Assembly: GCA_965242755.1 (NCBI GenBank)
Contig: OZ251500.1
Location: 950,379 to 1,014,378, forward strand
Length of the DNA: 64,000 nucleotides
Direction: 5' to 3'
Origin: Dehalococcoidia bacterium
GTDB taxonomy: Bacteria > Chloroflexota > Dehalococcoidia > Lucifugimonadales > Australimonadaceae
Shown: positions 3,979 through 63,118 of the stretch, piece by piece
Numbering within the stretch: position 1 is the stretch's first letter
How the letters are laid out: every line of letters starts with the position of its first letter
Translations under genes and position numbers: made by a program
The notes under the pieces: generated by a model
Told to the model about the DNA's origin: nothing
The model's database searches: none
The model's input: only the letters and a program-made list of their open reading frames with translations

Positions 3979-4009
3979 CCCAGTAGGTTCCCGCTTTCGC
4001 GGGAATGAC
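3979..4009. repeat. Hairpin repeat module A (inverted): TTCCCGC-TTTC-GCGGGAA
   Basis: cccagtaggttcccgctttcgcgggaatgac is the reverse complement of the unit seen at 10585, 12540 and 13557. Confidence 0.85.
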
Positions 4010-4057
4010 GGGGGTGTGTTGGGGGCATGGGACGGGCGCGGAGCGCCCGCCTGGGGG

Positions 4058-4368: not shown

Positions 4369-4444
4369 GCGATGGCCGAGAGAGGCCGGCAGGCGGCGCG
4401 ATCGATGAGCCTGACAACAAGTTCGGCGCGGACTCGCCCGCGTC

Positions 4445-4495
4445 GGGGGCATAACTCCCTGGGCTCCCAGTAGGTTCCCGCCTACGCGGCGCGGC
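4445..4495. repeat. Degenerate mosaic repeat (gcataactcc..ccagtaggttcccgcctacgcgg)
   Basis: Matches the D+A module junction seen at 48250-48300. Confidence 0.6.
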
Positions 4496-4624
4496 GTTGC
4501 GCCCCCTACCCGCCTGCACGCCCCTACCCCACCCCACCCCGCCTTGCCGCGCGGCGCGCGATTCGCGTAGGATTGCGCCCAACGGCCGCGCGGAACGCGG
4601 CGCTGCGGCAAAGGAGAATTGCGT

Positions 4625-5883: not shown

Positions 5884-5998
5884 CCGCCCTCTCCCGCCCA
5901 GAGGGAGAGGGAGTTGGGGAAGCCCGCGAAAGCGGCGACTTGCCGCGGGAATGATGGCAAATTCCCTCTCCCCTCTGGGAGAGGGTTAGGGTGAGGGT
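5884..5998. repeat. Mosaic repeat cluster (two CCCTCTCC..GGAGAGGG hairpins and one CCCGCGAAAGCGG unit)
   Basis: ccctctcccgcccagagggagaggg, cccgcgaaagcgg..ccgcgggaatga, ccctctcccctctgggagagggttagggtgagggt. Confidence 0.8.
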
Positions 5999-6347
5999 CG
6001 GGCGACTCGCTGCGGGAAGCCATAATGCGCGGAGCGCCAATCCTCTCCCATCCGCGCCCCGGCACGTCCAAGCGCTTCGTCGCTCCGGCGACGCATCAGC
6101 CGTCGCAACGATAGAACGCTACACCGCCTTGCTGGAGGAAAATGGCCCCGACCTTGGAATGCCCCGGGACAGGCTGCTCGACAGTGAGGTCGGCCTCTAC
6201 GAACTGCGGGCGGGCAACCACCGCATTGCGTACGGAGAAGCGGGCGGCGTGTTGTGGCTGCTGGAGGCATGGCGGAAGACCGCGCAACTCCCGCCGAGGA
6301 ACAGCGTCGACCGCGCCAGAAGGAGACTGCTCGACCTGAGGAGGTGA
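5991..6347 (+). CDS. HigB/Gp49-like (RelE superfamily) toxin; start uncertain
   Basis: ..LLEENGPDLGMPRDRLLDSEVGLYELRAGNHRIAYGEAGGVLWLLEAWRK.. fits the Gp49/HigB pattern. The 5' end runs into a repeat element. Stop lies 5 nt before the HTH gene. Confidence 0.6.
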   Translation: MRVGRLAAGSHNARSANPLPSAPRHVQALRRSGDASAVATIERYTALLEENGPDLGMPRDRLLDSEVGLYELRAGNHRIAYGEAGGVLWLLEAWRKTAQLPPRNSVDRARRRLLDLRR

Positions 6348-10496: not shown

Positions 10497-10727
10497 CCTG
10501 TCATTCCCGCGTAGGCGGGAATCCAGTCGGCGCGATAGCGCCACGACGGGGCGCAACGCGCCCCGTCCCCAAGCCATCCCGGAGCCCCGTCATTCCCGCG
10601 AAAGCGGGAACCTACTGGGGCTGCCGCCCTCCCCGCGCAAGCGCGAACCCCAACTGGCGCAAGCGCCGACCCCGCCCTCTCCCGCTGGGCGGGAGAGGGC
10701 AGCCGCGAAGCGGCGGGTGAGGGTTGC
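10497..10727. repeat. Mosaic repeat cluster (modules B, A, E)
   Basis: gtcattcccgcgtaggcgggaatccagtcggcgcg, ccccgtcattcccgcgaaagcgggaacctactgggg, ccctctcccgctgggcgggagagggcagccgcgaagcggcgggtgagggttg. Confidence 0.9.
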
Positions 10728-11344
10728 CGCAAAATCGGACAACCGCCCCTTGCGCGCTCGCGCATGCCTCGTATACCCTGCCCCTCCGATCAGCGCAGAC
10801 GACGGAGAAACGCTTGGAAGACGCCTACGGCGAGGGCTACCAACGCGCGCGGACAGAAGCGCTCGCCCGCAACCCCACCTGCCAATTCTGCGGACGCTTC
10901 CCCGCGACCGACGCCCACCACTGGGCGTTCCATAAGTATCCGCCCGACGCGGAGATCGGCCCCGACGACCTGACGGCCCTGTGCCGTCACTGCCACGAAA
11001 TAGCCACCACGGTGCGCCGCCACTACCGCGACAGAGGCGGCAAACCCCACCAGATACCCCAAGCGTTGGAGGAGGCCCTACGGCAATGCGATACCAAGTC
11101 ACCATCAGGGGCGTTAGCCCCCTCATCACGCACAACGGAGCGGCCGGACTCGACACCCGCTCCCCTGCCAACGTCGAGAAGGCGGAAATCGCCCGCAAGA
11201 AAGGCTCCAACCGAACCGCAACCGACGACGAGCGCATCAAGGAACTCGAATGCCAAACCTCGCTTTGGCTCGACGCGCGCGACGCGGCTACGATCCCGGA
11301 AGGCGCGATCCGAGCCTGCATCGAAACCGGAGCGCGAAAGTTGA
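10724..11344 (+). CDS. Small HNH-motif protein; both ends uncertain
   Basis: CQFCGRFPATDAHHWAF..LTALCRHCHEIA is an HNH-like Cys/His pattern. The TTG start lies inside a repeat. The last ~85 codons overlap the next gene out of frame and look non-coding. Confidence 0.45.
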   Translation: MPQNRTTAPCALAHASYTLPLRSAQTTEKRLEDAYGEGYQRARTEALARNPTCQFCGRFPATDAHHWAFHKYPPDAEIGPDDLTALCRHCHEIATTVRRHYRDRGGKPHQIPQALEEALRQCDTKSPSGALAPSSRTTERPDSTPAPLPTSRRRKSPARKAPTEPQPTTSASRNSNAKPRFGSTRATRLRSRKARSEPASKPERES

Positions 11345-12465: not shown

Positions 12466-12679
12466 GTCCGTCGGCGGAGCGCCGATGAACGCGCCAAGAG
12501 ACGGGGCGCAACGCGCCCCGTCCCCAAGCCATCCCGGGGCCCCGTCATTCCCGCGAAAGCGGGAACCTACTGGGGCGCCACGCCCTGCCCGCGAAAGCGC
12601 GAACCCACCCGGCGCGCAAGCGCCGCCCCCGCCCTCTCCTTCTGGGAGAGGGCAGCCGCGTAGCGGCGGGTGAGGGTCG
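12466..12679. repeat. Mosaic repeat cluster (modules B-tail, A, E)
   Basis: ..acggggcgcaacgcgccccgtccccaagccatcccgg.., ccccgtcattcccgcgaaagcgggaacctactgggg, ccctctccttctgggagagggcagccgcgtagcggcgggtgagggt. Confidence 0.9.
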
Positions 12680-12806
12680 CCCCATGTCGCAACTGCGACA
12701 CATGCCCCTTGCGCGCCCCCAACCACGCCCCTACGATGGACCCATCACGCCCCAAATCCCAACGAGGGCGCGCAACCGACGCGAACGGAGAGGAACGCAA
12801 GGCCAA

Positions 12807-13416: not shown

Positions 13417-13655
13417 CCCGCGCAAACGCGAATCCAGCCGGCGCGAAAGCACCGACCCCGCCCTCTCCCTCTGGAGACCTTTGCATAACCTACCGTCATT
13501 CCCGCGTAGGCGGGAATCCAGGCGGCGCGCAGCGCCGCTCCTCTCCCACGTAAGCGCCCCGTCATTCCCGCGAAAGCGGGAACCTACTGGGGCAGAGGAG
13601 TTATGCAAAGGCCTCCTCTGGGAGAGGGCAGCCGCGAAGCGGCGGGTGAGGGTTG
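13417..13655. repeat. Mosaic repeat cluster (modules E, D, B, A, D-inverted, E)
   Basis: ccctctccctctggagacctttgcataacctaccgtcattcccgcgtaggcgggaatcc ... ccccgtcattcccgcgaaagcgggaacctactgggg ... gagttatgcaaaggcctcctctgggagagggcagccgcgaagcggcgggtgagggttg. Confidence 0.9.
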
Positions 13656-14250: not shown

Positions 14251-14299
14251 CCAAACCGCTCGGCCCCTCCATCCGCATCGTTGCGGCGCCCCTATGCCG

Positions 14300-14470
14300 G
14301 CCTGCCCGCGTAGGCGGGAATCCAGTCGGCGCGCAAGCGCCACGAGACGGGCGCCCCGTCCCCGGCTGGGTTTTGCGCCTCCGCGGGTGAGGGTTGCCCA
14401 GCAGGTTCCCGCTTGCGCGGTCAGGGCGTGGCCCCGGGGATGGCTTGGCGCGCGCAAGCGCCGATTGATG
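14300..14470. repeat. Mosaic repeat cluster
   Basis: cccgcgtaggcgggaatccagtcggcgcgcaagcgccacgagacggg.., gggtgagggttgcc, ggttcccgcttgcgcgg. Confidence 0.8.
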
Positions 14471-15039: not shown

Positions 15040-15258
15040 TCCCGTCATTCCCGCGCAGCCGCGAACCCAGCCGGCGCGATAGCGCCACGACGGGGCGTCC
15101 CGCGCCCCGTCCCCAAGCCATCCCCCGGCTACCTCGCCCTGACCGCGAAAGCGGGAACCTATTGGGCCTTGCCGCCCTCCCTCGAAGCGACGAACCCAGT
15201 GGCGCGAAAGCGCCAACCCCCCTCTCCTTCTGGAGACCTTTGCATAACCCACCCGCCC
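15040..15258. repeat. Mosaic repeat cluster
   Basis: gtcattcccgcgcagccgcgaacccagccggcgcgatagcgccacgacgggg.., ccgcgaaagcgggaacctattggg, cctctccttctggagacctttgcataaccc. Confidence 0.85.
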
Positions 15259-15260
15259 CT

Positions 15261-15402
15261 GCTCGCGTTCCTCAAAGAGGCGGACAAAGCCGTTCCGCCG
15301 AACGCCGAGCCGCCGACCGACCCCGACTATCGCAAGCGCGCCGCCGCCTACCTGCGGAAGCATTACCGTCGCGCCCCAGCCGCGTCCGCCCGCGAGCGGT
15401 AG
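15261..15402 (+). pseudogene. Duplicated 3' fragment of the PaREP1-like gene (last 46 codons and stop)
   Basis: 142 nt align with 14891-15032 at 7 mismatches. Encodes LLAFLKEADKAVPPNAEPPTDPDYRKRAAAYLRKHYRRAPAASARER-stop with no 5' part. Confidence 0.85.
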
Positions 15403-15454
15403 CCCTCCCCTGCCGCCAGCCGCTCGGACCCCGGCCTTGCCGAGACCTCGCCCG

Positions 15455-15645
15455 CCCTGCCCGCATAGGCGGGAATGACGCGGCGCTTGGGGTAGAAGAG
15501 GGGCAGCGCCTTACGCGGCGGGGGGGTTCGCGGCTACGCGGGGAGGGCGTGGCCTGGCGCCTACGCGGGCAGGGCGGCGCGGCATGGCAAGGCGGCGTTG
15601 ATTGGTTCCCTCGCCTTACCAGGGAGAGGGTTAGGGTGAATGTGG
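15455..15645. repeat. Mosaic repeat cluster
   Basis: cccgcataggcgggaatgacgcgg, several ctacgcggg units, cagggagagggttagggtga. Confidence 0.75.
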
Positions 15646-15710: not shown

Positions 15711-17552
<1,842 letters not shown>

Positions 17553-25734: not shown

Positions 25735-25822
25735 CGTGCCCTCCCATTGCTCAATGGGATTATTCTACGCTACCCCCGCGCGCCGCCACGCGGCGGCTAT
25801 GCCTGCGGCGCTAGCGGCGCGC

Positions 25823-26103
25823 GGGATTCCCGCCTACGCGGGCGGTGCGGCAACCCTCACCCGCCGCTGCGCGGCTGCCCTCTCCCAGAAGGAGAGGGCG
25901 GGAGCGACGCTCCGCGTCGAGCTGGATTCCCGCCTACGCGGGCAGGGCGGCAACCCTCACCCGCCGCTGCGCGGCTGCCCTCTCCCAGAAGGAGAGGGCG
26001 GGATGGCGCTATCGCGCCGACTGGATTCCCGCCTACGCGGGAATGACGGTCTATGGAGCGCGTGCGCGACGGGTTGGGAGTTGCGCCTACGCGGCCAGGG
26101 CGG
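25823..26103. repeat. Mosaic repeat cluster with an internal ~97-bp tandem duplication
   Basis: ggattcccgcctacgcgggc.ggcggcaaccctcacccgccgctgcgcggctgccctctcccagaaggagagggcggga.. occurs twice in tandem, followed by a third ggattcccgcctacgcgggaatgacgg. Confidence 0.9.
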
Positions 26104-26954: not shown

Positions 26955-27065
26955 AACGGGGCGCGACGCGCCCCGTCATGGCGCTTGCGCGCCGACTGAT
27001 TCCCGCCTACGCGGGAATGACGGTTGGTTAGGCAAAGGTCTCCGATGGCGGGAGAGGGACAGGGG
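26955..27065. repeat. Mosaic repeat cluster
   Basis: acggggcgcgacgcgccccgtc, gattcccgcctacgcgggaatgacgg, ttaggcaaaggtctcc, gggagaggga. Confidence 0.8.
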
Positions 27066-28206: not shown

Positions 28207-28470
28207 ATGGTGCAAGTGAATATGCACGAGGCGAAGGCGCAACTCTCCCGGCTGGGGGAGCTGGCCTGCAAGGGAGAGCGCGTCGTGATCGCCAAGAACG
28301 GCAAGCCCTACCTCGACATGGTGCCGCACCAGGAGGAGAAGCGGCGCGAGCCCCGCCAACTCGGCGGGTACGAAGGCCAGATCCGGATCGGGCCGGGTTT
28401 CGAGTGGTCGGACGAGGAAATCGACGAGTACCTCAACCTCGACGACCCGAACGATCCGCTGAAATGGTAG
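28207..28470 (+). CDS. Phd/YefM-type antitoxin, copy 2
   Basis: All but 1 of the first 47 aa match copy 1 (L37M). The C-terminal half is unrelated (GGYEGQIRIGPGFEWSDEEIDEYLNLDDPNDPLKW). Confidence 0.8.
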   Translation: MVQVNMHEAKAQLSRLGELACKGERVVIAKNGKPYLDMVPHQEEKRREPRQLGGYEGQIRIGPGFEWSDEEIDEYLNLDDPNDPLKW

Positions 28471-31027: not shown

Positions 31028-31285
31028 ATCCCGCGAAAGCCGGAATGACTAGGCGCTTGCGGCGGGAGAGGAGCGGCGCAGTCGCGCCGGACTGGATTCC
31101 CGCCTACGCGGGAATGACGGCAGGTTATGCGGGAATGACTAGGCGTTTGCGGCGGGAGAGGAGCGGCGCAGTCGCGCCGGCCTGGATTCCCGCCTACGCG
31201 GGCAGGGCGGTAGGTTATGCGGACGGCAGGTTATGCCGGAATGGCGGCAGGTTACGCGGACAGGGCGGTAAGTATGCAAAGACCG
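31028..31285. repeat. Mosaic repeat cluster with an internal ~88-bp tandem duplication
   Basis: ggaatgactaggcg.ttgcggcgggagaggagcggcgcagtcgcgccgg.ctggattcccgcctacgcgg.. occurs twice. It is followed by four loose copies of a gc(a/g)g-(g/t)tta(t/c)gc-(g/c)g (ggttatgc-like) motif. Confidence 0.9.
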
Positions 31286-33266: not shown

Positions 33267-33379
33267 CTGCGCCGCCTCCGACTATCCTGCGAATTCGCGC
33301 CGCCCGCCCGCCGGCGTCTCGGCCAGGCGCTAGGTTAGCAAGCAATTGGAGGGATTCGCAGGATACCTACCATGGGGAA

Positions 33380-33500
33380 CCCTTGCATAACTCCTTGCGT
33401 CCAGTAGGTTCCTGCTTTCGCGGGGCAGGCCGGGCGCATACGTCGGAGAGGAGCGGCGCTTCGCGCCGACTGGATTCCCGCCTACGCGGGAATGACGGCA
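33380..33500. repeat. Mosaic repeat cluster
   Basis: cccttgcataactccttgcgtccagtaggttcctgctttcgcgggg .. ggagaggagcggcgcttcgcgccgactggattcccgcctacgcgggaatgacgg. Confidence 0.85.
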
Positions 33501-33515
33501 AACCTTACGGATGCG

Positions 33516-35234
<1,719 letters not shown>

Positions 35235-36920: not shown

Positions 36921-36990
36921 TGCGCGAACCACCCGGCGCAAGCTCCATCCCCGCCCTCTCCTTCCGGGAGAGGGCAGCCGCGTAGCGGCG
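36921..36990. repeat. Mosaic repeat unit (E module) in the divergent intergenic region
   Basis: ccgccctctccttccgggagagggcagccgcgtagcggcg. Confidence 0.8.
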
Positions 36991-38830: not shown

Positions 38831-38834
38831 CGCA

Positions 38835-44300: not shown

Positions 44301-44435
44301 CCCCGGCGCGACGGTAGGACGCGGCGCCCGGGTCGAGAGGGCAAGGAACCTCCCCGCCCTTGTTATACTCAATAGCCAATCGAAGCCTCGATTCGTTATC
44401 CGCGCTCCCGCGGCGGGGCGCGATTAGGCGGCGCA

Positions 44436-44606
44436 ATGATCCCCAAGGACGCGAAACCGAAACTGCGGAACGCGGCGCTCGCAGGAACGCTCGTCAGTTT
44501 TCCGCTGCTGTACCTCGGGCCGGTGACGCTGGAGAGCCCCGCCGTGACGCTCGCCGGCCTCGCCGTCGCGGGAGCGACCGCCGTCCTCGCTTGGCTGGCC
44601 TTCTAG
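44436..44606 (+). CDS. Possible 56-aa membrane peptide
   Basis: ATG 44436 to TAG 44604-44606. Two hydrophobic stretches. Below the ORF-track size cutoff; no RBS checked. Confidence 0.3.
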   Translation: MIPKDAKPKLRNAALAGTLVSFPLLYLGPVTLESPAVTLAGLAVAGATAVLAWLAF

Positions 44607-44614
44607 GAGCGCGA

Positions 44615-45412
44615 ATGACGCCGCAGCCCGCTCATACGCCGCAGCCCGCCCATACGCCGCAGCGCCAGTTCGGACGCCTCGCCGCCGCCTACCGCGACAG
44701 CAAGACGCACGCCCGCGGCGGCGCGCTCGTCTCCGCCGACGCGCTACTCAGCCCAGGCCGGCGCTACGGCGTCGCGGTCGACGTCGGCGCGGGCCCCGGC
44801 TTCTCCGCGTTCGCCGTCGCCGGGCGGTGCGGCCGCGTGATCGCGACCGACGTCACGCCGGAGATGCTGGAGCAGGCGCGGTCGCTCATGGAGGAGCGCG
44901 GCGCGCCCCAAACCGAACTGGCACTCGCCGCCGCCGAAGCGCTCCCCTTCCGCGACGGCTCCGTCGACCTCGTCGTCTGCCGCACCGCCGCGCACCACTT
45001 CTCGGACGCGGACGCATGGCTCGCGGAGGCCGCCCGCATCCTCTCGACGGACGGCGAACTGATCCTGATCGACACCGTCTCGCCGGACGATCCGGAAGCC
45101 GCGGCGTGGATGCATGCCATCGAGGTATGGCGCGATCCCTCCCATTCGCGTAACCTGTCCGCCAGCGATTGGACGGACGCCGCGCGCCGCGCCGGGCTCC
45201 GCGTCGTCGAAACCGCCCTTTCCCGCGTGGATCTGGAGTATCCGGACTGGACGGAACGGGCGGGAATGTTGGAAGATGAGGCCGCCCGGCTCGGACGCGC
45301 GCTCGCGGATGCGCCCCCGCCGGCGAGGGAAGCGTTTGGAATTGCGCCGGAAGAGGGCGGCGCCGTCCGCTTCTTTTGGCCTATACTTGCAATGAAGGCC
45401 GTGAAACCGTAG
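44615..45412 (+). CDS. Class I SAM-dependent methyltransferase (type 11-like)
   Basis: VAVDVGAGPGFSA (motif I), VDLVVCRTAAHHF, DGELILID. Confidence 0.8.
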   Translation: MTPQPAHTPQPAHTPQRQFGRLAAAYRDSKTHARGGALVSADALLSPGRRYGVAVDVGAGPGFSAFAVAGRCGRVIATDVTPEMLEQARSLMEERGAPQTELALAAAEALPFRDGSVDLVVCRTAAHHFSDADAWLAEAARILSTDGELILIDTVSPDDPEAAAWMHAIEVWRDPSHSRNLSASDWTDAARRAGLRVVETALSRVDLEYPDWTERAGMLEDEAARLGRALADAPPPAREAFGIAPEEGGAVRFFWPILAMKAVKP

Positions 45413-45451
45413 CGGCGCCGCGCAAGGCGGAGCCGGACAAGGAGGGAACGC

Positions 45452-47254
45452 ATGACGACAGCCGCATCAAAGAGAACCGTGCCAGTCAACGGAGTGTTTT
45501 TCGTCATCGCCGACAGCCGCGAATGGACGGAGTCGGTGGTCAACGCCGCTCTACAGAGCAGGCCCAAGATTGCCAAGGGCGTGCGGGACGCGCTGAACGC
45601 CGCAATCGACAACGAGCCCCGCATATCGGTGGACGGCTTTCGCAAGTCGAGCCTCGCCCCCGCCGCGCGCCTCGTCGGGCCGATCTGCGGCGCCCTCGCC
45701 CGAGGCAACGACAAACTGGGGTCGGTCGTCCTCAGAGTCTGGACGGACTCCAACGACGCCCTCGCCGACGCCGTCCGCGCCCACCTCCAAGAACAGGACA
45801 TCGCCGACGAATACGATCCCAGGCGCGAAGCGTTCGAGTCCATTTGGTCAATGTCCCGGTGCATGGAGGAGCGGGACGCCATTGTGGAGAAGAACGCCGA
45901 CGCGGAGTTCGACAAGGACGACGTCGCGCTGATGCTCTGCCTGATCGCCGGCAAGTTCCCCGAATCCGAAACGCGCATCCACTCCCCCCTCTTCGCCGAA
46001 TGGCTCGACAAACTGAGCAGCCTCCCGTCGGACGCGCCCGAATGGGAAGAGTGCACCAAGTTCCTCCTCGCCGCCTACGCCATCACCCAGAAAACCGTCG
46101 ACAACCGCAACAAGGAGCAGCGGGCGCGCCTCAGCGAGCGCATCGAAGAGATCCTCGAGGAGTTCACGGAGGAAACCCAATACCTCGACGTGGACGTCAG
46201 TTCGTGGGTGGAGGACGCCTCCGCCAAGACGGACATCCTAGGGGAAGCGGCGGACTTGGCGGGGCGGCTCAACGCCGCTATCAAAGCCTACAGCGCCGTT
46301 CGTCCCCAGGCGCCGACCCGCGGCGAGGAACTGGAGCGCGCCGAAAAGCGCAAAGAGTACGAAGCCGACATCCTCCGCCTCGTGGAAGAGTGGCGCGACC
46401 TGATGAACACGCCCGACCGCCCGGCGCTCCCCGGCCTCGGCCCGGACGACCGGGACGAAGACGAAGACAAGGGCGGCGCGTCCTCCGAAGCCTACGCCGC
46501 GCTGGAGTCCGAGAAGAACGACCTCGCCGCCGAGACCGCCCGCATCAAGCAGACGCTCGACGCGCTCCGCCAGGCGCAGGAGAAACTGCGCGCCGAAAAA
46601 GACGACCTCGCCGCCGAGAACGCCCGCGTCTCCCAAGCCCGCGACACCCTCCAAATCTCCTACGACAAGTTGCGGACGGAGAAGGAGACCCAGAGCGACG
46701 AGATCAGCGACCTCAAGCAGGAACTCTACGAGAGCCGCCAGCGCGAGGAGTCGTGGCGCGAAACCGCCGTCGCGATGCAGGCGCAGGGCGAAGAGGAGGA
46801 ACTGCCGCCGATCAACAGCGTCCGCGACGCCATCGCCGCCGCGGAGGCGCGCTTCCCCGACCAGTTGGTGTTCGCCCTGAACTCCAAGTCCAACGAGGAC
46901 ACCGCCTTCCAGCGCCCCATCGAGGTCTACGACGCCCTCGCGTGGCTCGCCACCGAGTACCACCCCATCCGCGCCAACCCCACCGGCTCCGACCCCGACC
47001 TCGACATCCTCCTCAGGGAGGCGTGCTCCGGCTGGGCCTACGTCCCCCATCAGTCCTACGTGACGATGGGCATGTACCCCGAGTGGTACAAGGCGGAGCA
47101 CAACGGCTCCACCTACGAACTCACGCAGCACCTCCGCAAAGGCACCAGCGGCAACCCCCAGTACTCCATCCGCATGGCGTTCGCGTGGGACAGCGACCTC
47201 AAAAAGGTGATTATGGGCTACATCGGCCCGCACCAGCGCAACCAGGCGAGTTAG
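45452..47254 (+). CDS. Orphan 600-aa protein: N-terminal domain, acidic coiled-coil, conserved-looking C-terminal domain
   Basis: GGAGGGA RBS. Internal 28-aa tandem repeat (NDLAAETARIKQTLDALRQAQEKLRAEK / DDLAAENARVSQARDTLQISYDKLRTEK). C-terminus ..HLRKGTSGNPQYSIRMAFAWDSDLKKVIMGYIGPH. Confidence 0.7.
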   Translation: MTTAASKRTVPVNGVFFVIADSREWTESVVNAALQSRPKIAKGVRDALNAAIDNEPRISVDGFRKSSLAPAARLVGPICGALARGNDKLGSVVLRVWTDSNDALADAVRAHLQEQDIADEYDPRREAFESIWSMSRCMEERDAIVEKNADAEFDKDDVALMLCLIAGKFPESETRIHSPLFAEWLDKLSSLPSDAPEWEECTKFLLAAYAITQKTVDNRNKEQRARLSERIEEILEEFTEETQYLDVDVSSWVEDASAKTDILGEAADLAGRLNAAIKAYSAVRPQAPTRGEELERAEKRKEYEADILRLVEEWRDLMNTPDRPALPGLGPDDRDEDEDKGGASSEAYAALESEKNDLAAETARIKQTLDALRQAQEKLRAEKDDLAAENARVSQARDTLQISYDKLRTEKETQSDEISDLKQELYESRQREESWRETAVAMQAQGEEEELPPINSVRDAIAAAEARFPDQLVFALNSKSNEDTAFQRPIEVYDALAWLATEYHPIRANPTGSDPDLDILLREACSGWAYVPHQSYVTMGMYPEWYKAEHNGSTYELTQHLRKGTSGNPQYSIRMAFAWDSDLKKVIMGYIGPHQRNQAS

Positions 47255-47271
47255 CGCAGGAGCGCCCATGC

Positions 47272-47495
47272 CGCCCTGCCCGCGTAGGCGGGAATCCAGT
47301 CGGCGCGCAAGCGCCTCCTTCTGGGAGAGGGCAGCCGCGTAGCGGCGGGCGAGGGTTGCGCCCTGCCCGCGCAAGCGGGAATCCAGTCGGCGCGAAAAGC
47401 GCCGCCCACGCCCTCTCCTTCTGGGAGAGGGCAGCCGCGAAGCGGCGGGTGAGGGTTGCGCCCCGCCCTGACCGCGAAACCGGGAACCTACTGGC
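47272..47495. repeat. Mosaic repeat cluster
   Basis: Two copies of cccgcg.a.gcgggaatccagtcggcgcg..ctccttctgggagagggcagccgcg.agcggcggg.gagggttgcgcc, then ccgcgaaaccgggaacctactgg. Confidence 0.9.
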
Positions 47496-47520
47496 CGCCG
47501 GAAGTTACGCAACCGCTCGC

Positions 47521-48036
47521 CTAGCGGCGCGCCCTGAACGCGGCCGCTCGCTCTGTTCGCGCGTCGGCCCGTTCCCAGTAGCGCCTGTTCCTGTTGTTTC
47601 GCGGAGGCGGAGGAGCGTCGCGGGGCAACTCGCGGTTGGCCTTCTTGAGAAGAGCCAGCAGTTCGGCGCCGTCCTTGCGCCGAATCTTGATCTCCTCCAT
47701 ATCGTACCCATCGGCGTAGAAATTGACGTGCAGGTTGTTCACGCTGTCGAACAACAGCCGGATTCTGTCGTCGCGCATCAGGTTAGCGATATGCCCGATG
47801 ATGACCCCGGCGTCCGCGTGCGCCGCATACGGCCAGTCGCGCGGCGCGGCGACCGTCTTCAAGGCATGGGCGACCGCCCCCCAGACCTTCTCGGAGGCTT
47901 GCAGCCTGTCGCCGTTCTTCACCATCAAGCCGGAATGCTTGTAGAGAGCGTCCCGATGCTTGCCGTGCGAGGTGATCGGCTGCTCGACGTCGCCTATCTC
48001 AACAGCCCTCACGGCGTCTCGCGTTCCTTCGACCAT
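47521..48036 (-). CDS. PaREP1/HEPN-like helical protein, paralog 3
   Basis: NGDRLQASEKVWGAVAHALKTVAAPRDWPYAAH (R-x6-H) and NLHVNFYADG. Convergent with the 600-aa gene. Confidence 0.6.
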   Translation of the reverse strand: MVEGTRDAVRAVEIGDVEQPITSHGKHRDALYKHSGLMVKNGDRLQASEKVWGAVAHALKTVAAPRDWPYAAHADAGVIIGHIANLMRDDRIRLLFDSVNNLHVNFYADGYDMEEIKIRRKDGAELLALLKKANRELPRDAPPPPRNNRNRRYWERADARTERAAAFRARR

Positions 48037-48153
48037 CCTGCGCCTCCTCCTAATCAGAATACCACGAAAAGCGGCAATGAATTGCGTAATCTATGGCCTT
48101 ATCCGTTGCGGCCGGGCCCGTCGGCAGAGAACGTGCAACTCCGCGCTGACGTA

Positions 48154-48636
48154 GATTCCTCTTTCGCGGGAACTACCCCTGCCGCCATTCCCGCGCAAGC
48201 GGGAATCCAGTCGGCGCGAAAAGCGCCGCCCACGCCCTCTCCTTCTGGAGACCTTTGCATAACTCCTCTGCCCCAGTAGGTTCCCGCTTTCGCGGGAATG
48301 ACGTGGCGCTTACGTAGGAGAGGAGCGGCGCTCCGCGCCGCCTGGATTCCCGCCTACGCGGGAATGACGGTAGGTTATGCAAAGGTCTCTTCTGGGAGAG
48401 GGCAGCCGCGTAGCGGCGGGTGAGGGTTGCCGCCCACGCCCTCTCCTTCTGGAGATCTTTGCATAACTTCTCTGCTCCAGTAGGTTCCCGCTTTCGCGGG
48501 AATGACGGGGCGCTTACGTAGGAGAGGAGCGGCGCTGCGCGCCGCCTGGATTCCCGCCTACGCGGGAATGACGGTAGGTTATGCAAAGGTCTCCTCTGGG
48601 AGAGGGCAGCCGCGTAGCGGCGGGTGAGGGTTGCCT
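48154..48636. repeat. Largest mosaic repeat cluster (about 480 bp; modules A, B, D, E in both orientations)
   Basis: Contains gcgggaatccagtcggcgcg, ccctctccttctggagacctttgcataactcctctgccccagtaggttcccgctttcgcgggaatgacg, ggattcccgcctacgcgggaatgacggtaggttatgcaaaggtctc, gggagagggcagccgcgtagcggcgggtgagggttgc, each about twice. Confidence 0.9.
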
Positions 48637-48663
48637 GCGCAGCGGCGCGCGCGGCCCGTCGCG

Positions 48664-49089
48664 CTACGAGCGCGTAGGGAGCGCGACGACGGCCTCCCCG
48701 GTCGTCGTTCGGACGCCGGCGCCGTTCTCGATCCAGATTTCGCAGCGCGCCGTCCCCGCCGCCTCGTCCTTCTCCTTGACGACGCCCCGGCAGGCGAGCG
48801 CGTCGCCCGGAACGTCCATCTCGCGGTAGCGGACGGACAGAGAGAGCAGCCGCCCTTCCGGGCCCGCCCAGTCGGTCATCAACTGGCCGAGGAAGGCGCT
48901 CTTCAGCGCGCCGTGCAGGATCACGCCCGGAAGCCCCTGCGCGTTGGCGAAATCCTTGTCGTAGTGGATCTCGTAGAAGTCGCCGGACGCGCCGGCGTAC
49001 ATCGCGAGTTGCCGCGTCGTGGGGCGCTTGGTCAGCGGCGGAATCTCCGCGCCGACGGCGACGTCGTTCAGGTAGGGCTGGGCGCTCAT
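48664..49089 (-). CDS. MaoC-like (hot-dog fold) dehydratase
   Basis: YAGASGDFYEIHYDKDFANAQGLPGVILHG matches the MaoC pattern. Confidence 0.8.
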   Translation of the reverse strand: MSAQPYLNDVAVGAEIPPLTKRPTTRQLAMYAGASGDFYEIHYDKDFANAQGLPGVILHGALKSAFLGQLMTDWAGPEGRLLSLSVRYREMDVPGDALACRGVVKEKDEAAGTARCEIWIENGAGVRTTTGEAVVALPTRS

Positions 49090-49505
49090 AGGGCGGGCAT
49101 CCTGATGATGGTGTTGCGCTGCGTCGCGGCGAGTTCCCCGCGCTGGTTCGCGTAGCGCGTGAGGTAGGTTGCGATGAGCATCGGCCCCATGCGCCCCTCG
49201 CGCTCGGCGAGCGACTCCATTTGCGTGACGAACGTGATCACGTCGCCCGGCCGAACCGGCTCGCCGTAGGTCCAATCGCTGCCGCCGTCGAGCGCGCGCG
49301 GCGCGGTCTCGCCGTCGGGCAACGGAGGGATGGCGCGCCCGACGCTTCGCAGGAACGTGGGCGGCGCGACGTCCGGGTACGCGGGGTTGGCGTCGCCGAT
49401 GGCGGCGGCGAACCGCTCGACGGCGCCCCGCTCGACGAGGGCGGACTGCGGCTCGCCGTCTTTCCCGACGGCGGCCTGCATCGCGGGCGTGAGGATCGAA
49501 GCCAT
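49086..49505 (-). CDS. MaoC N-terminal-type hot-dog domain protein (partner subunit)
   Basis: ERGAVERFAAAIGDANPAY..APPTFL. ATGA-type overlap with the MaoC gene. Confidence 0.7.
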   Translation of the reverse strand: MASILTPAMQAAVGKDGEPQSALVERGAVERFAAAIGDANPAYPDVAPPTFLRSVGRAIPPLPDGETAPRALDGGSDWTYGEPVRPGDVITFVTQMESLAEREGRMGPMLIATYLTRYANQRGELAATQRNTIIRMPAL

Positions 49506-49525
49506 TGCGCGCGCTCCGTCCGCCC

Positions 49526-50764
49526 CTAGAAGCCGCCGACGTCGGCGGCGCCGGGCGGCGGCGCGTAGTCGGTGTACGCCCACTCCGGCATCGTGCTCTC
49601 CAGCCCCTCCAGGCCGATCATCCGCTCGAACTCTCGCCGGATCGCCGGATCCTGGTCGGGATAAGCGATGGCGTTGCCGCCGTCGCGCGTGTCCTGCGCG
49701 CCGCCGTCGCGGGCGTCGGAGCCCGGCGCCGCCGAGCGACGCATCCCCGGCCCATAGGGGCCGTCGAAGATGAGGAAGCGAATGCCGTTCGGCGAGGTTC
49801 CGAAGTGCTGATGGAACCAGTCGCCCGTCATCGGCGCCGCGCTGATCATCCCGACGGGCTCGTAATCCTGGCGCTTCACGTCGCCGCCGAGCCCGGCGTC
49901 GAACGGGCGCTCGCCCAGCCGGTCGGGCCACGTGATGCTGTAGCCCTTGCCTCGGATGCAGACGAGGATCGCGCCGGACGAGTGCTTGTGCGCCTTGGAG
50001 TACTGCCCCGTTTCGTACTGGCCGATCTTCATGTAGAAGTTGGCGCCGGCCATGTGGGGCTCGACGCGGCGGTAGGAGAACGACCGGCGGTTGTCGCGCG
50101 GCAGATGGCAGTTCACGATGTCGGGGATGATGTTCGTGCGGCGCATCGCGAGGCCGCGGACGGGGTCGGCGTGGATATCCTCGACGGGCTTGAAGTAGTC
50201 GTCCTCCGCGTCGAAGAGGTCGGTGAACTCGTAGGGGCTGTTGAGGACGAACTCGCCGTTGCGGACGAGGTTGACGATGTTGGGGGCGGTGGTGGCGGCG
50301 AGGAGGAGCGCGGGGCTGGAGGTGGCGTTCACGAGGCGGTGCATCGCGTTCAGCGGGATGCCGAAGAGCGAGCCGGCGCTCCACTCGAACACCTGCTTCT
50401 TCTCGGGGGCGCCGTCCTGCCACACCTCGGTGGAGCCGCGCCCCTCCGCGACGTAGTAGATCTCCTCGTACATGTGCTTTTCGGGGTTGAGCGCGCCCGC
50501 GCCGGGGATTTCGACGACGTACATGCCCCAGAGGTGCTCGGTGCCGAGCAACTGAATGGCGACGCCGTTCCCCCCGAGCCGCTTCCACGGCTTGAGCGGC
50601 AGATCCTGAATGCGCCGGACGCCGATGTCGCGGTGGATCTCGATCCCCTGCGCCTCGATGAAGAGGTCGTAGGCGGACTTCGGCGTTTTCCAGAAGCCGA
50701 AGCCGGCCTTGTTCATCCCCTCGGGCTCGCGCCAGTCCGCCAGTTCCGCCGTTTTCGTCACCAT
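49526..50764 (-). CDS. Bicupin protein (dioxygenase-like)
   Basis: Two cupin-like segments (..HMYEEIYYVAEGRG.. and ..KAHKHSSGAILVCIRGKG..). 412 aa. Confidence 0.6.
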   Translation of the reverse strand: MVTKTAELADWREPEGMNKAGFGFWKTPKSAYDLFIEAQGIEIHRDIGVRRIQDLPLKPWKRLGGNGVAIQLLGTEHLWGMYVVEIPGAGALNPEKHMYEEIYYVAEGRGSTEVWQDGAPEKKQVFEWSAGSLFGIPLNAMHRLVNATSSPALLLAATTAPNIVNLVRNGEFVLNSPYEFTDLFDAEDDYFKPVEDIHADPVRGLAMRRTNIIPDIVNCHLPRDNRRSFSYRRVEPHMAGANFYMKIGQYETGQYSKAHKHSSGAILVCIRGKGYSITWPDRLGERPFDAGLGGDVKRQDYEPVGMISAAPMTGDWFHQHFGTSPNGIRFLIFDGPYGPGMRRSAAPGSDARDGGAQDTRDGGNAIAYPDQDPAIRREFERMIGLEGLESTMPEWAYTDYAPPPGAADVGGF

Positions 50765-50871
50765 AGGTCGCCCTCCGTTCGCGGCAGTGATATGCGCCCG
50801 CTATTCTACACCGCGCGTAAGATGGGCGCCGCCGCCCGCCCACTCAGCCGCCACGCCGCGCTTACGCGCGG

Positions 50872-51564: not shown

Positions 51565-52593
51565 CTATGACGCGGGCGCTCCCTCGCCGCGCGCCGCCGC
51601 CAGCCTGTCCGCATGCTCTTCCATCGGCGCGCGCCCGTCCCGGAGTTCGGCGATCCGGTCGCGCCAGCGCCGCGGGATAGCGGCGAGGCCGAACCGCGCT
51701 CCGAGCAGCGCTCCCGCGACCGCGCCGTTCGTGTCCGTGTCGCCGCCCGCTTCGACGACGGCGCGCAGACCGCTCTCGAAGTCCGGCACTCGCCAGAGGG
51801 AGACGAGCCCCGCTTGGAGCGTCAGCAGCGTGTAGCCCATGTCGCCTCCGTCGAGTTTCATCGCGGCGACCTCCGCGTCGGCGGCCTGCAGAACCGCGTC
51901 GCGCGCCTCGTCCGGCGCCTCCTCCCGATAGCCGTAGCGCGACAACTCCGGGAGCGACGGACGCATAGCGTCCTCCGTCGCGGCGATGAGCGCTTCCGCG
52001 TCAATCGTTTCCCCGCGCAGGGCCGCCGCGGCTGCGATGTTGATGATGGCGCACGACCATCCGCACCGCTGGTCCCAGTGCGTTGGAACGGCGCTGACGA
52101 CGCTGTTGCGCGCAATCGCCGCGGGGTCGTCGCGCCACCGAATGGCGATGGGGGCGCAGCGCATCGCCGCTCCGTTGCCCGCCGACGCTCCGCCCCAAGC
52201 CTCGCGCGACGCATCCGCTATCGCTATTCCGCGCGGCTCCCTTGCGGCGTCCGCCGCGCCGCGTCCGAGTCGGGGACTGTCGCCGCCGTAGAGCGTGAGC
52301 GCGTCGTGCGTGAGATTCCCGATGCCGAGCCCGTTCAGTTCCGCCCACTCCCAGAATCGGCGGCCCAGGTCGTCCGCGTCAAGCGGCCCCTCCGCCGCCG
52401 ACTCCGCAATGATGATGGATTGCGCCAGGTCGTCGTCGTCCGGATAGCCCGGCTTGGCCGGGATGTCGCGGATGCCGTTCGGGAAGAGCCTCCGCACGGT
52501 CGCCTGCGGCCTGCCCTCCACGGTGACGCCGAGCAGGTTCCCCGCGGCGACGCCCATCATCAGGCCGCGCGCTTTGTCGTTCGCGTCGCTCAT
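51565..52593 (-). CDS. ADP-ribosylglycohydrolase family protein
   Basis: ARGLMMGVAAGNLLG, YPDDDDLAQS, GGDTDTNGAVAGALLGARFG. Confidence 0.8.
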   Translation of the reverse strand: MSDANDKARGLMMGVAAGNLLGVTVEGRPQATVRRLFPNGIRDIPAKPGYPDDDDLAQSIIIAESAAEGPLDADDLGRRFWEWAELNGLGIGNLTHDALTLYGGDSPRLGRGAADAAREPRGIAIADASREAWGGASAGNGAAMRCAPIAIRWRDDPAAIARNSVVSAVPTHWDQRCGWSCAIINIAAAAALRGETIDAEALIAATEDAMRPSLPELSRYGYREEAPDEARDAVLQAADAEVAAMKLDGGDMGYTLLTLQAGLVSLWRVPDFESGLRAVVEAGGDTDTNGAVAGALLGARFGLAAIPRRWRDRIAELRDGRAPMEEHADRLAAARGEGAPAS

Positions 52594-52606
52594 ATCCTCT
52601 GCCCCC

Positions 52607-54505: not shown

Positions 54506-54565
54506 TGCGAGCGCCTCCCAAGCGGCATGCGGCGGGAGTATACACATTGGCGGGGGCGGGGCCGT

Positions 54566-54815
54566 TTAGGTTCCCGCCTACGCGGGAATGGCGGCCATGG
54601 GGTTGATTTGGGGACGGGGCGCGTGGCGCCCCGTCTTGGCGCAGCCGAGGTTCGTCGGCATGGCTCACCAGCCTACGAGGATGGGTGCTGGGGCGGGGCG
54701 GCCCTCACCCTGGCCCTCTCCCAGAGGGAGAGGGTATTTGTCGGTCGGCGGGGCGGCGCCCCGTCGCGGCGCTTGCGCGCCGACTGGATTCCCGCCTACG
54801 CGGGGCAGGGCGGAC
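54566..54815. repeat. Mosaic repeat cluster
   Basis: ggttcccgcctacgcgggaatggcgg, ccctctcccagagggagagggt, gccgactggattcccgcctacgcgggg. Confidence 0.85.
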
Positions 54816-60569: not shown

Positions 60570-60602
60570 TCAGAGCGTCCCAATGCATCATCCCGCCGCC
60601 CT

Positions 60603-60797
60603 GCCCGCGTTAGGCGGGAATCCAGAGGGCGCGGAGCGCGAGAATCCCCACAGAGACCTTTGCATAACCTACCGTCATTCCCGCGTAGGCGGGAATCCGG
60701 AGGGCGTGGAGCGCGAAAATCCCCACAGAGACCTTGGCATAATCTACCGTCATTCCCGCGTAGGCGGGAATCCAGAAGGTCGCGGAGCGCGAGAATC
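60603..60797. repeat. Three tandem ~75-bp composite repeat units
   Basis: cccgcgt(t)aggcgggaatcc....gg.gcgcga.aatcccca.agagacctt.gcataa.ctaccgtcatt starts at about 60604, 60680 and 60754. Confidence 0.9.
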
Positions 60798-61679: not shown

Positions 61680-61741
61680 CTGCGGCTGCAACCCGCGCGC
61701 GCCTCTTCACGGCTGCAACCCACGTGCGCCGCTTCGCGGCT

Positions 61742-61813
61742 GCCCTCTCCCCCGTCATGTCCGCGAAGCGGGAACCTACCTCCATGACCGTCATTCCCGC
61801 GTAGGCGAGAATG
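61742..61813. repeat. Mosaic repeat units interrupted by the IS element
   Basis: ccgcgaagcgggaacctacctccatgaccgtcattcccgcgtaggcgagaatg. The B-module hairpin is cut after its first arm. Confidence 0.85.
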
Positions 61814-62801
61814 TGGATTCACACTGGAAGCGCAACAGTTCCGGACGACCCCAGAATACCTCAGACGGCGTCTGGTAGCCCAGCGCCGAGCGCGGCGTGT
61901 TGTTGTAGCGCGACGCGCACAACGTCAACTCCTCGTCCGGCACGCCGTCCAAGTTCGTCCTCCGCGGCAACTCCCGCCGCAGACGCCCAATCGCGTTCTC
62001 CACTCCCCCCTTCTGCCACGGCGACCGAACGTCGCAGAAGAACGTCTCAACTCCCAACTCATGCAACTCGTGATGCCGGGCGAACTCCGTCCCGTTGTCG
62101 AACGTCACGCTCCGCCGCATCTCCATCGGCAGCGTCCCCATCACGGCCAGCATCGCGCGCGCAACCGCCTCGGCGCCCTTGTTCTCCGGCCGCTGCAGGA
62201 GCGTGAGCCGCGACGCCCGTTCGTGCAGGACCAACAGCGCCTGCTTCTTCACCCCGAACAGCATCGTGTCCGCCTCCCAGTGGCCGAACTCAACCCGGTC
62301 CGCCGCCCTCGCAGGCCGCTCCGACAGAGGCCGCCTCGCCTTGATGAACAGGGCGGAACTGCGGCCCTTGCGCGAGCGGCGCCCCCGCGTCGCCTTCCGC
62401 TTCGGCAGGAAGTTCCGCCAGTCGTAGTCCTTCGTCCTCTTCACCTGCGCCGCGATGAACCGGTAGATGCTCTCGTGGGAGATCACCGGCCTCCCCATCT
62501 CCAACGCGAGGCGGCCGGACACTTGCGGCGGCGACGCGCCCCACGCCATGCGGCGCAGGACGGCCTCGCGCAGGAGATCGTCGCGGTCGAGGCGGGGGCC
62601 CTTCCACCGCCGCGCCCGCGCCTTCTCGTCCGCCTTGGCAGCCTTGTACTCGCCCGCGCTCATCGCGTTGCGGTTGATCTCGCGAGAGATCGTCGATGGC
62701 GAGCGATCCAGATTTGTAGCGATTTCCCGGATCGGGCGCCCCTCTTGGTATAGGCGGGCAATCGCGCAGCGTTCCTCGATGTCGATGTGTCGGTATCCCA
62801 T
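61791..62801 (-). CDS. IS30-family DDE transposase
   Basis: N-terminal HTH (IREIATNLDRSPSTISREINRN), FGHWEADTM, TFDNGTEF, SPWQKGGVEN. The ORF runs about 23 nt past the left IR before reaching a stop. Confidence 0.9.
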   Translation of the reverse strand: MGYRHIDIEERCAIARLYQEGRPIREIATNLDRSPSTISREINRNAMSAGEYKAAKADEKARARRWKGPRLDRDDLLREAVLRRMAWGASPPQVSGRLALEMGRPVISHESIYRFIAAQVKRTKDYDWRNFLPKRKATRGRRSRKGRSSALFIKARRPLSERPARAADRVEFGHWEADTMLFGVKKQALLVLHERASRLTLLQRPENKGAEAVARAMLAVMGTLPMEMRRSVTFDNGTEFARHHELHELGVETFFCDVRSPWQKGGVENAIGRLRRELPRRTNLDGVPDEELTLCASRYNNTPRSALGYQTPSEVFWGRPELLRFQCESTFSPTRE

Positions 62802-62846
62802 GGCTCCACCACCTTGCTCTGGCGTTGCGCTTCGTTTGTGAATCCA
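61814..62846 (-). mobile_element. IS30-family insertion sequence (about 1033 bp)
   Basis: Terminal inverted repeats TGGATTCACACTGGAAGCGCAAC (61814-) and TGGATTCACAAACGAAGCGCAAC (reverse complement ending at 62846). Single transposase ORF. Confidence 0.85.
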
Positions 62847-63118
62847 GGGAATCCAGTCGCGCGATAGATCCACGACGGCGCGCGCACCCCGTCCCCTAGC
62901 CATCCCCCACGGCCGCGTCATTCCCGCGAAAGCGGGAACCTACCTCCGTGACCGTCATTCCCGCGTAGGCGGGAATCCAGTCGGCGCGATAGCGCCACGA
63001 CGGGGCGCAACGCGCTCCGTCCCCAAGCCATCCCCCACGGCCACGTCATTCCCGCGAAAGCGGGAACCTACTGGAATCCCGGCGCTCCGCGTCATTCCCG
63101 CCTACGCGGGCAGGGCGG
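62847..63118. repeat. Mosaic repeat cluster (second half of the interrupted hairpin and further units)
   Basis: gggaatccagtcgcgcgatag.., gtcattcccgcgaaagcgggaacctacctccgtgaccgtcattcccgcgtaggcgggaatccagtcggcgcgatagcgccacgacgggg.., gtcattcccgcgaaagcgggaacctactgg. Confidence 0.9.

Follow-up and report, generated by a model that had tools for sequence, protein, structure and literature searches.

Hairpins, triplex motifs and a miniature transposable element in the intergenic repeat clusters of a Dehalococcoidia chromosome

What are the hairpin-rich repeats that crowd so many of the intergenic spacers in a 64,000-nucleotide stretch of a Dehalococcoidia chromosome (contig OZ251500.1; the whole stretch is referred to below as the window), and what has brought them there in such numbers? 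A preliminary description, made from the letters of the window, listed 20 such clusters, among them an elaborate one at 48154-48636, and considered them a single mosaic family built from a few recurring modules and marking nearly every cassette boundary, with possible roles in cassette exchange, transcript insulation or mRNA stabilization. Dense repeats are indeed present at all 20 listed sites, in copy numbers far above those in shuffled sequence. They are not one family, however: the clusters consist of three unrelated kinds of element, namely hairpins of the NTS/SRM type (modules A and B), triplex motifs of the BoxC type (module E) and the ends of an IS5-type MITE, a miniature transposable element with inverted repeats (module D), together with two linkers, C and F. 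The three kinds are known and widespread in bacteria, and our searches gave no description of them in Chloroflexota. We think it quite probable that the clusters are intergenic pile-ups of these elements, nested in a high-GC Chloroflexota chromosome, and that they spread there along the lines considered below.

Three kinds of element in the clusters

The core of module A, a 24-mer, is present 21 times in the window when up to three mismatches are allowed and is absent from shuffled versions of it; the corresponding figures are 11 copies against an expectation of 0.12 for module D, and nine copies against none in shuffles for module E. The proposal that the core of module B fits the pattern ATTCCC-N8-GGGAAT holds, with 12 exact copies of the palindrome where shuffles led to an expectation of zero. 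Comparison of the window with itself by BLAST gave 21 intervals with three or more copies, totaling 2,665 nt, and the module map has modules at each of the 20 positions, those at 4445 and 5884 being degenerate copies. Coding sequences are free of modules, all 66 of 66 hits being intergenic, and modules are present in 17 of the 30 spacers of at least 100 bp. The share of gene junctions concerned is about one third (17 of 54, or 19 of 54 with the two degenerate sites counted), far from the near-universal marking of boundaries that had been claimed. In form the clusters of the window are head-to-tail B-C-F-A arrays, tandem units, half-MITEs (D-B) and solo hairpins; the tandem units, of ~90-100 bp, have the composition B*-C-triplex motif, B* being a consistent variant of B in which the 5' arm is altered. 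The stretch 48154-48636 contains a 204-nt tandem duplication (48225-48428 and 48429-48632, 97% identity) and, folded as a single strand, reaches -158 kcal/mol (z = -12.2 against shuffles). A CRISPR-like array was ruled out by the irregular spacing of repeats and spacers. No part of the window reached an Rfam gathering score, no tRNA was found in it, and no search gave an identity for linkers C and F.

With modules A and B the point of reference is the work on neisserial dRS3 repeats, which are part of a longer, oriented 28-nt sequence, the NTS (Neisseria Transformation Sequence), with the consensus CGTCATTCCCGCGMAVGCGGGAATCYRG (Chenal et al., Nat Commun 2025, PMC11893778). SsnA, a 94-amino-acid single-domain GIY-YIG nuclease, binds the NTS as single-stranded DNA (ssDNA) and cuts a few bases upstream of it; binding needs a C just 3' of the palindrome and cleavage needs three bases 5' of it, and the enzyme is inactive on double-stranded DNA and on RNA, the latter not being bound (PMC11893778). 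The Ssn-related motifs (SRM) and homologues of Ssn have a wide distribution, the copy number of the motif exceeding 300 in Sphingomonas, Devosia, Rickettsia, Wolbachia and others, and dRS3 is a phage integration target in Neisseria (PMC11893778). Module B, CGTCATTCCCGCGTAGGCGGGAATCCAG, is one loop base off the published NTS consensus and module A is two positions off it. Within one mismatch, which is what that study allowed for NTS membership (PMC11893778), the window has 10 matches, rising to 19 within two and 23 within three, and 100 shuffles gave none. The SRM pattern, HGTCWYN(0-2)YYVSBRHN(0-5)WNVSBRGN(0-2)RNCYNB (PMC11893778), is matched 18 times (shuffle mean 0.64, maximum 4), and all 18 copies have the orientation-giving flanks (C/T)GTC-ATTCCCGC...GCGGGAA(T/C)-C; module B keeps both the 5' GTC and the 3' C, the bases critical for cleavage and binding by SsnA. 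Since A and B match the NTS with one or two mismatches, and SRM copies number 18 against 0.64, the link to dRS3 is one of sequence identity, and on that basis the two modules are members of the same sequence class as dRS3/NTS, beyond analogy. The lead to dRS3 given in the preliminary description was thus sound, and its restriction to 'analogy only' was overcautious in view of the one-mismatch match and the conserved GTC/C flanks.

The stems have been maintained as stems. Among 51 distinct Chloroflexota copies, four of the eight pairs have compensatory double changes (CCTGCG...GCAGG and CCGGCG...GCCGG are examples), 85% of the cells of the hairpin alignment are paired, and the covariation score of 0.108, compared with 0.064 in shuffles, was reached in none of 500 column shuffles. 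The hairpins lie on both strands (14 plus, nine minus) and GC skew is uniformly negative across the window, so that hairpin orientation does not follow replication. What is shared with the NTS/SRM system is therefore the consensus and pattern, the GTC/C flanks, the hairpins themselves, their clustering around genes and their high density. What differs is the host, Chloroflexota here where PMC11893778 stresses Pseudomonadati and symbionts; the form, with GTAG or GAAA loops, head-to-tail mosaic arrays and some copies inside an IS5-type MITE; and that an ssn gene was not located in the 64-kb window or in the loci of relatives. The arrays bounded by module B also recall the neisserial intergenic mosaic element (NIME) arrays, where dRS3 bounds RS units, with repeat units of ~90-100 bp punctuated by ATTCCC-N8-GGGAAT palindromes, although in the window the content of the units is C, F and triplex modules, and no evidence was obtained here for gene replacement of the minimal-mobile-element type.

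The distribution of the hairpin extends far beyond this lineage. With one genome taken per species, the exact 24-mer was found in at least 118 stretches in many phyla, the taxa among the matches listed being Devosia, Sphingopyxis, Sphingomonas, Luteimonas, Sphaerotilus, Dehalococcoidia, Gemmatimonadales, Binatia, Nitrospirae and others, and its carriers include genera called SRM-rich in PMC11893778. Isolates and metagenome-assembled genomes (MAGs) of many phyla are both represented, for instance by loci L017, L024, L031, L033, L037, L038, L062 and L090. In Sphingomonadales and Luteimonas the 24-mer is present as inverted pairs, GTCATTCCCGCGAAAGCGGGAACCCAG-N20-35-CTGGGTTCCCGC...GAATGAC, which are REPIN- or MITE-like. 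In some loci from Betaproteobacteria and Gemmatimonadaceae two to three tandem CGTCATTCCC half-sites, ~20 nt apart, precede the hairpin (L042 3180-3222, L044 about 6154-6193 and L075 3698-3737), and these look like iterated protein-binding sites.

Module E is of a different nature. Taken together, E1 and the terminal part of E2 give CCCTCTCC-loop-GGGAGAGGG-loop-GGGTGAGGG, a pyrimidine arm, its complementary purine arm and a G/T-rich third arm with the capacity to pair with the purine arm. BoxC/PIT/TMECO sequences are intrastrand triplex motifs that are present in more than 260 genomes and form triplexes in vitro (Holder et al., NAR 2015, PMC4666352); the same paper recalls earlier work in which PIT/BoxC was without promoter or terminator activity, reports no mobility genes near the motifs and has E. 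coli loci with triplex motifs as more rearranged than control sites. The stretch 5962-6003 of the window has matches of 39 nt and 92-95% identity in every one of 5,426 complete E. coli genomes, in a median of 18 places per genome (one example is in the glnH-glnP spacer), and the matched E. coli sequences agree with the TMECO/BoxC entries in Table 1 of PMC4666352. Module E is accordingly identified, from its arms, as a BoxC/PIT/TM intrastrand triplex motif whose triplex is predicted. Seven motifs in the window are intact and three are interrupted by a MITE; most of the intact ones carry an extra CCGCG-WAG-CGG hairpin in loop 2. The three-block architecture, the intergenic location and, for one window copy, the near identity to E. 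coli are held in common with BoxC/PIT/TMECO. The additional loop-2 hairpin sets the window motifs apart, as does their being a transposon target, in contrast to the lack of nearby mobility genes in PMC4666352.

The transposon concerned is delimited by module D. Inverted pairs of D lie 142 bp apart at 13474-13615, 48248-48389 and 48452-48593, with GAGACCTTTGCATAAC at both termini, and each of these three complete MITEs interrupts loop 1 of a triplex motif, a YTCTG pentamer lying on either side. Where the filled site reads CCCTCTCC-TTCTG-[GAGACC...GGTCTC]-TTCTG-GGAGAGGG, uninterrupted motifs such as that at 12632-12676 have the empty site, CCCTCTCC-TTCTG-GGAGAGGG. The interior is non-coding and consists, on one strand, of a B hairpin, a C-like hairpin, a linker and an A hairpin. 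In addition to its three complete copies the window has at least six partial ends, and copies are also present in the relatives L119 and L121; L119 (91%-identical orthologue) has two more MITEs in triplex loops, likewise with YTCTG on either side, in another genomic context and beside an empty motif. The end of ISNme1 from N. meningitidis is GAGACCTTTGCAAAA, and this end has been tied to the neisserial ATR MITE and to the BrickBuilt MITE of P. gingivalis (PMC4596501). Module D is to be read as the inverted repeat at the termini of a 142-bp MITE that belongs to the ISNme1-like IS5 family. The module sequences first given for D and E were correct; what had been missed was the nature of D as a transposon end and of E as a known triplex motif. 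With IS5 elements of the ISNme1/ISPg1 type and their MITEs (neisserial ATR, BrickBuilt) the 142-bp MITE has in common ends of the form GAGACCTTTGCA...TGCAAAGGTCTC, small size, lack of coding capacity, multiple copies and target duplications. It differs from them in the window by a 142-bp GC-rich interior that is two NTS hairpins and by the consistency of the 5-bp duplication, and in this lineage by insertions specific to the triplex-motif loop.

A scan of metagenomes with a 16-mer of the end gave at least 120 contigs of 34-64% GC, and among the matches listed are 75 MITE-sized D...D elements, on contigs of 34-62% GC and with many unrelated interiors; perfect 5-bp duplications flank 32 of these 75, and 43 have duplications agreeing at four or more of the five positions. 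D-ended elements of ~1.43 kb code for transposases that pass the NCBIfam model of the IS5 family (NF033581, 176 bits, cut-off 140) and have the Pfam domains DUF772 and DDE_Tnp_1, homologues of which were found in eight loci. SRM-type GTC-arm-loop-arm-C hairpins are carried by 12 of the 75 listed MITEs, so that hairpin cargo is recurrent in the MITE superfamily, and the density of GTC-hairpin-C is 1.6 per kb within the listed MITEs compared with 0.073 per kb in the flanking 658 kb. Two relations that the locus puts on view, that NTS-type hairpins can ride an IS5-family MITE and that a transposon can have the loop of a BoxC triplex motif as its specific target, appear to be new.

Spread and persistence of the repeats

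How might such clusters have come about? We envisage that an IS5-family transposase acting in trans moved the 142-bp MITE, which would enter triplex motifs at loop 1, duplicating 5 bp of the target, and bring the B and A hairpins with it as cargo, and that tandem arrays, among them the two 204-bp units of 48154-48636, would then have arisen through unequal recombination. NTS arrays that are not part of a MITE may have spread via a hairpin- or ssDNA-based route tied to an unseen ssn gene. For the most part the elements would be kept as selfish or neutral passengers, with intergenic spacers as their safe havens, and with effects on the host, be it cutting of NTS-bearing ssDNA by Ssn or triplex-linked instability, being secondary. 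Selfish accumulation in these havens seems the most likely mechanism.

Several findings weigh against this account. The greater part of the A/B hairpins (27 of 33) are outside complete MITEs, in arrays that have no detectable inverted ends or target duplications. Independent insertions into triplex loops are few: as two of the three window MITEs share one tandem duplication, there are about two in the window, with one or two more in L119. Moreover, no ssn gene (cd10448 GIY-YIG), REP-associated tyrosine transposase (RAYT) or IS5 transposase was found in the 64-kb window or in ~110 kb of relatives, and so the users and mobilizers of the repeats can only be conjectured. For ssn, neither a GIY-YIG regular expression nor phmmer nor Pfam detected a gene in the window; the first two, applied to 10,810 six-frame open reading frames (ORFs) from the window and all loci, picked up nothing beyond L035 (Rhodospirillales) and, in L117, a truncated copy. 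The latter, in a Dehalococcoidia MAG, lies ~70 nt downstream of an NTS-like hairpin and is the only trace in the lineage, and a protein search with its N-terminus gave only four short fragments, all from tiny contigs, of which one has 38% GC. The search by tblastn for an autonomous IS5 partner found the transposase only in low-GC metagenome loci, with none in the window or in Chloroflexota loci.

Could the clusters act mainly at the RNA level instead, as hairpins in 3' untranslated regions that stabilize or insulate transcripts, or as non-canonical terminators? They begin 8-48 nt past stop codons, their loops are often GNRA-like on the coding strand (GAAA, GCAA), the structure of 48154-48636 is strong (z = -12) and, in co-directional contexts of the window, NTS strand and coding strand coincide in 10 clusters and differ in 2. 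The strand bias has been dropped as evidence because it was not reproduced in the relatives L119-L121 and L127, where the count is about 3 versus 4, and the orthologous genes of close relatives manage without repeats. SsnA binds the motif as ssDNA and not as RNA (PMC11893778). The earlier suggestion of termination or insulation found no backing either: the clusters of the scanned region 46800-49400 have no T-tailed terminator-like site, so that canonical intrinsic terminators are ruled out for them, and to this can be added the lack of promoter or terminator activity of PIT/BoxC (PMC4666352) and the absence of an Rfam match. We regard a mainly RNA-level role as unlikely.

Repetitive extragenic palindromic (REP) sequences of the classical type reportedly have a GTAG head directly 5' of the hairpin, and the reverse complement of module A, CCAGTAGG-TTCCCGC-TTTC-GCGGGAA, has a GTAG head in just that position. 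The mosaic arrays resemble bacterial interspersed mosaic elements (BIMEs), and the inverted pairs of Sphingomonadales hairpins, 20-35 nt apart, are REPIN-like. In enterobacterial REP/BIME arrays, elements of the IS1397/ISKpn1 type insert into REP loops with a short duplication. The likeness to the present clusters would lie in intergenic mosaic arrays of GC-rich palindromes and a mobile element homing to a palindrome loop; here, however, the palindromes are others, the element is an IS5-type MITE and not an insertion sequence (IS) of the IS3 family, and no RAYT was found in the DNA scanned. A REP or REPIN nature of the hairpins, with a domesticated IS200/IS605-like RAYT as the agent of their spread, is nonetheless decidedly improbable: the head of module B is CTGG (CTGG-ATTCCCGC) rather than GTAG, with GTAGG-TTCCCGC in module A; hairpins in this lineage are head-to-tail, inverted doublets being confined to other taxa; neither the scanned ORFs of the window nor the genes called in relatives gave a Y1-transposase (Y1_Tnp) match; and sequence and flanks match the experimentally defined target of Ssn (PMC11893778). 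The cognate RAYT or piv-like recombinase that the preliminary description had proposed to look for was not encountered, a RAYT in the window and the gene tables of relatives and a piv-like enzyme in the window.

The remaining proposal, cassette exchange, can be judged from the relatives. These were drawn as a graded series from two window proteins, whose more distant homologues, where named, belong for the most part to MAGs of Chloroflexota and Dehalococcoidia, and for nine relatives the surrounding DNA was compared. Nucleotide homology with the window is limited to three short blocks, a three-gene unit at 44344-47255 (80-92% identical), a cupin gene alone at 49515-50778 (85-87%) and 51572-53126 (78%), and the flanks differ in every relative. 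The scrambling of gene order relative to L119-L128 (78-92% nucleotide identity) is unusually fine, with blocks of one to three genes. Just one of the five mapped block edges in the window (47255) adjoins a cluster, those at 44344, 49515, 50778 and 51572 being without a repeat; this is no better than the ~35% of junctions that have repeats anyway. In L124, L125 and L128 (35 kb in total) the same conserved blocks are in new contexts with no module at all, and the 21 kb of L127 (genome of 2.87 Mb) hold just two single hairpins, neither of them at a mapped block edge. L119-L121 are repeat-rich, and the repeat load of near relatives spans a more than 5-fold range, a comparison in which short-read contigs may under-represent repeats, as L126 (99%-identical orthologue) stops exactly where a window cluster starts. 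That the clusters are recombination or integration sites driving cassette exchange, after the manner of neisserial NIMEs and minimal mobile elements or of integron attC, is barely credible since only one of five breakpoints is at a cluster, some relatives share breakpoints without repeats and the window contains neither an integrase nor a piv-like recombinase, even if the fine scrambling, the stop of block 44344-47255 where cluster 47269 starts, the greater rearrangement of E. coli triplex loci reported in PMC4666352 and the use of dRS3 as a phage integration target in Neisseria (PMC11893778) all speak for it.

In L128 two copies of a 469-amino-acid DDE_Tnp_1_4/DDE_Tnp_1 transposase (5638-7047 and 14638-16047, with IS66-like fragments beside the first) sit where the window has unrelated genes, and the locus is without hairpin repeats; as an autonomous partner for the MITE these transposases were rejected, their ends being different and without a match to D.

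To return to accumulation in intergenic havens, the fact that breakpoints do not need repeats and that repeat load varies so widely among near relatives speaks for an expansion that is recent and specific to the lineage, and against a conserved function at boundaries. In a free-living-type Chloroflexota lineage the repeats can reach a density like that in pathogenic Neisseria, with few of them in near relatives. A broader and distinctly tentative proposal is that NTS/SRM hairpins, BoxC motifs and ISNme1-type MITEs form one nested mobile-element ecosystem, in which MITEs would repeatedly capture hairpins, carry them within genomes and between phyla and home to exposed triplex loops, with Ssn perhaps acting on hairpin-bearing ssDNA and either controlling the elements or aiding their spread. 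If true, it would explain the identical 24-mer from Proteobacteria to Chloroflexota and the more than 5-fold differences in repeat load. The locus bears on the biology of Ssn beyond Neisseria and on how NTS/SRM hairpins and BoxC motifs arose and spread; it offers testable hypotheses for repeat amplification, and the repeat-rich and repeat-poor sisters are a natural comparison for recombination, transformation and genome stability.

The clusters along the window

The nesting is at its most elaborate in 48154-48636. Reading from its left edge, there is a degenerate module-A-type hairpin on the minus strand, GTAGATTCCTCTTTCGCGGGAACTAC (48150..48182, sequence read directly), and then, on the plus strand, an NTS-type hairpin, CGCCATTCCCGCGCAAGCGGGAATCCAG, with one mismatch to the PMC11893778 consensus (48183..48210) and module C, which is the GC hairpin GGCGCG-AAAA-GCGCC with its linker (48211..48234, from the module map). 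Next comes a BoxC-type triplex motif on the plus strand, with arms CCCTCTCC, GGGAGAGGG and GGGTGAGGG, which the presence of MITE 1 in loop 1 extends to 192 nt (48235..48426, TTCTG at both junctions). The 142-bp MITE copy 1 itself (48248..48389, minus strand, recognized as a D inverted pair) has ends GAGACCTTTGCATAAC...GTTATGCAAAGGTCTC, and the module map places its hairpins, also on the minus strand, at 48342-48368 (B) and 48276-48302 (A). The second motif, found by pattern scan within the 204-nt tandem duplication (48439..48630, plus), holds the 142-bp MITE copy 2 (48452..48593, minus), which is flanked by TTCTG and CTCTG and has B at 48546-48572 and A at 48480-48506. The third triplex motif with a MITE is at 13461..13652 (plus), its MITE, 13474-13615, being in opposite orientation with CTCTG duplicated.

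Going along the window, a solo module A (NTS/SRM) hairpin at 3979..4013 (minus) is followed by a degenerate MITE end (GCATAAC) with an A/B remnant at 4441..4500 (minus) and by a triplex-motif cluster at 5884..6003 (plus), within which 5964-5997 is the short variant of the E. coli-type BoxC, CCCTCTCCCCTCTGGGAGAGGGTTAGGGTGAGGG. Several plus-strand clusters come next: an array B-C-F-A and then degenerate hairpins and a triplex motif (10497..10730), an array F-A-B*-C-triplex motif (12500..12680), a B*-C unit (14298..14345), and B-C-F-A*-C with a solo D end at 15233 and degenerate B* copies at 15452-15476 (15040..15580). The minus strand then has tandem ~100-bp units of B, C and triplex motif, repeated two to three times (25805..26050), a C-B-D unit with one MITE end (26968..27042), two tandem 90-nt units with C and B/B* hairpins (31039..31240) and a degenerate MITE comprising D, A* and B that is 64% identical to the 204-nt unit (33353..33500). 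A solo hairpin with triplex-motif arms 1 and 2 (36940..36990, plus) precedes the cluster at 47269..47512 (plus), a tandem pair of B*-C-triplex motif units with A*, which starts 18 nt past the stop of the gene at 45452-47254, homology to relatives having stopped at 47255. Between divergent genes at 54549..54813 (minus) is A*-F-triplex motif-C-B*, and two tandem D-B half-MITE units are at 60596..60790 (plus).

The last clusters have been broken into by a further mobile element. An E2-like stretch of the minus strand, A* and a B hairpin's 5' part (61716..61812, plus) are separated by an IS30-family IS (61813..62846, minus; ends TGGATTCACA...TGTGAATCCA, transposase ORF 61791-62921) from the remainder of the split B hairpin and a C-F-A-B-C-F-A-B* array (62847..63118, plus). 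The transposase is well above threshold (NF033563, 222 bits against a cut-off of 80) and the element is inside the 3' arm of the B/NTS hairpin; clusters are therefore landing pads for further mobile DNA. The resemblance of the IS30 ends (TGGATTC...) to the complement of the interrupted B-hairpin arm (CTGGATTCCCGC) suggests targeting through similarity to the element's own ends.

Neighbouring genes and other repeats

The DNA of the window, 62-73% GC, has housekeeping genes, among them those for class I ribonucleotide reductase, LepA, GatB, CtaA, CtaB and acetyl-CoA synthetase, as well as a C5-pathway haem cluster (GluTR, HemC, CobA-HemD, HemB); an exact look-up of the ribonucleotide reductase gave no record. 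In between lie genes for restriction-modification, toxin-antitoxin pairs of the PIN/Phd kind, one ThsB-TIR gene and three PaREP1 genes. The latter, of the PaREP1/PaREP8 family, whose name comes from archaea, are at 703-1293, 14499-15032 and 47521-48036, two of them being single genes bracketed on both sides by clusters. The small cluster-bracketed ORFs 10981-11682, 12806-13381 and 13713-14250 have no Pfam or NCBIfam family and, being family-less, are not candidates for a cognate enzyme on present evidence.

Other duplications in the window involve genes. A 202-nt direct repeat with 89% identity (27480-27681 and 28195-28396) has as its second member a partial Phd/PIN toxin-antitoxin copy just downstream of the intact pair (27471-28153). 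On the minus strand at 33516-35153 and 35235-36851 are tandem paralogues in which an N6/N4 DNA methylase is fused to an Mrr-like restriction endonuclease domain; they are 92% identical over 300-nt stretches and adjoin a type III-like Mod/Res pair (37037-40844), with which they form a restriction-modification cluster.

Finally, the plus strand at 11677-12363 has ~680 bp of strictly 5-nt-periodic sequence, (GGCNN)n, with more than 120 units in four blocks, each of which ends in GGCAGGGAAC..TTGAC and is followed, before the next block, by CAGACAACGAYAYARRTC with a TATAAA-like box. The pattern (GGCNN)6GGC has four matches in the window, against none in shuffles, is absent from 248 other loci and has no Rfam match. 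Purely as an idea, its geometry of triplets with 2-nt spacers recalls that of RNAs bound by ring proteins such as TRAP.

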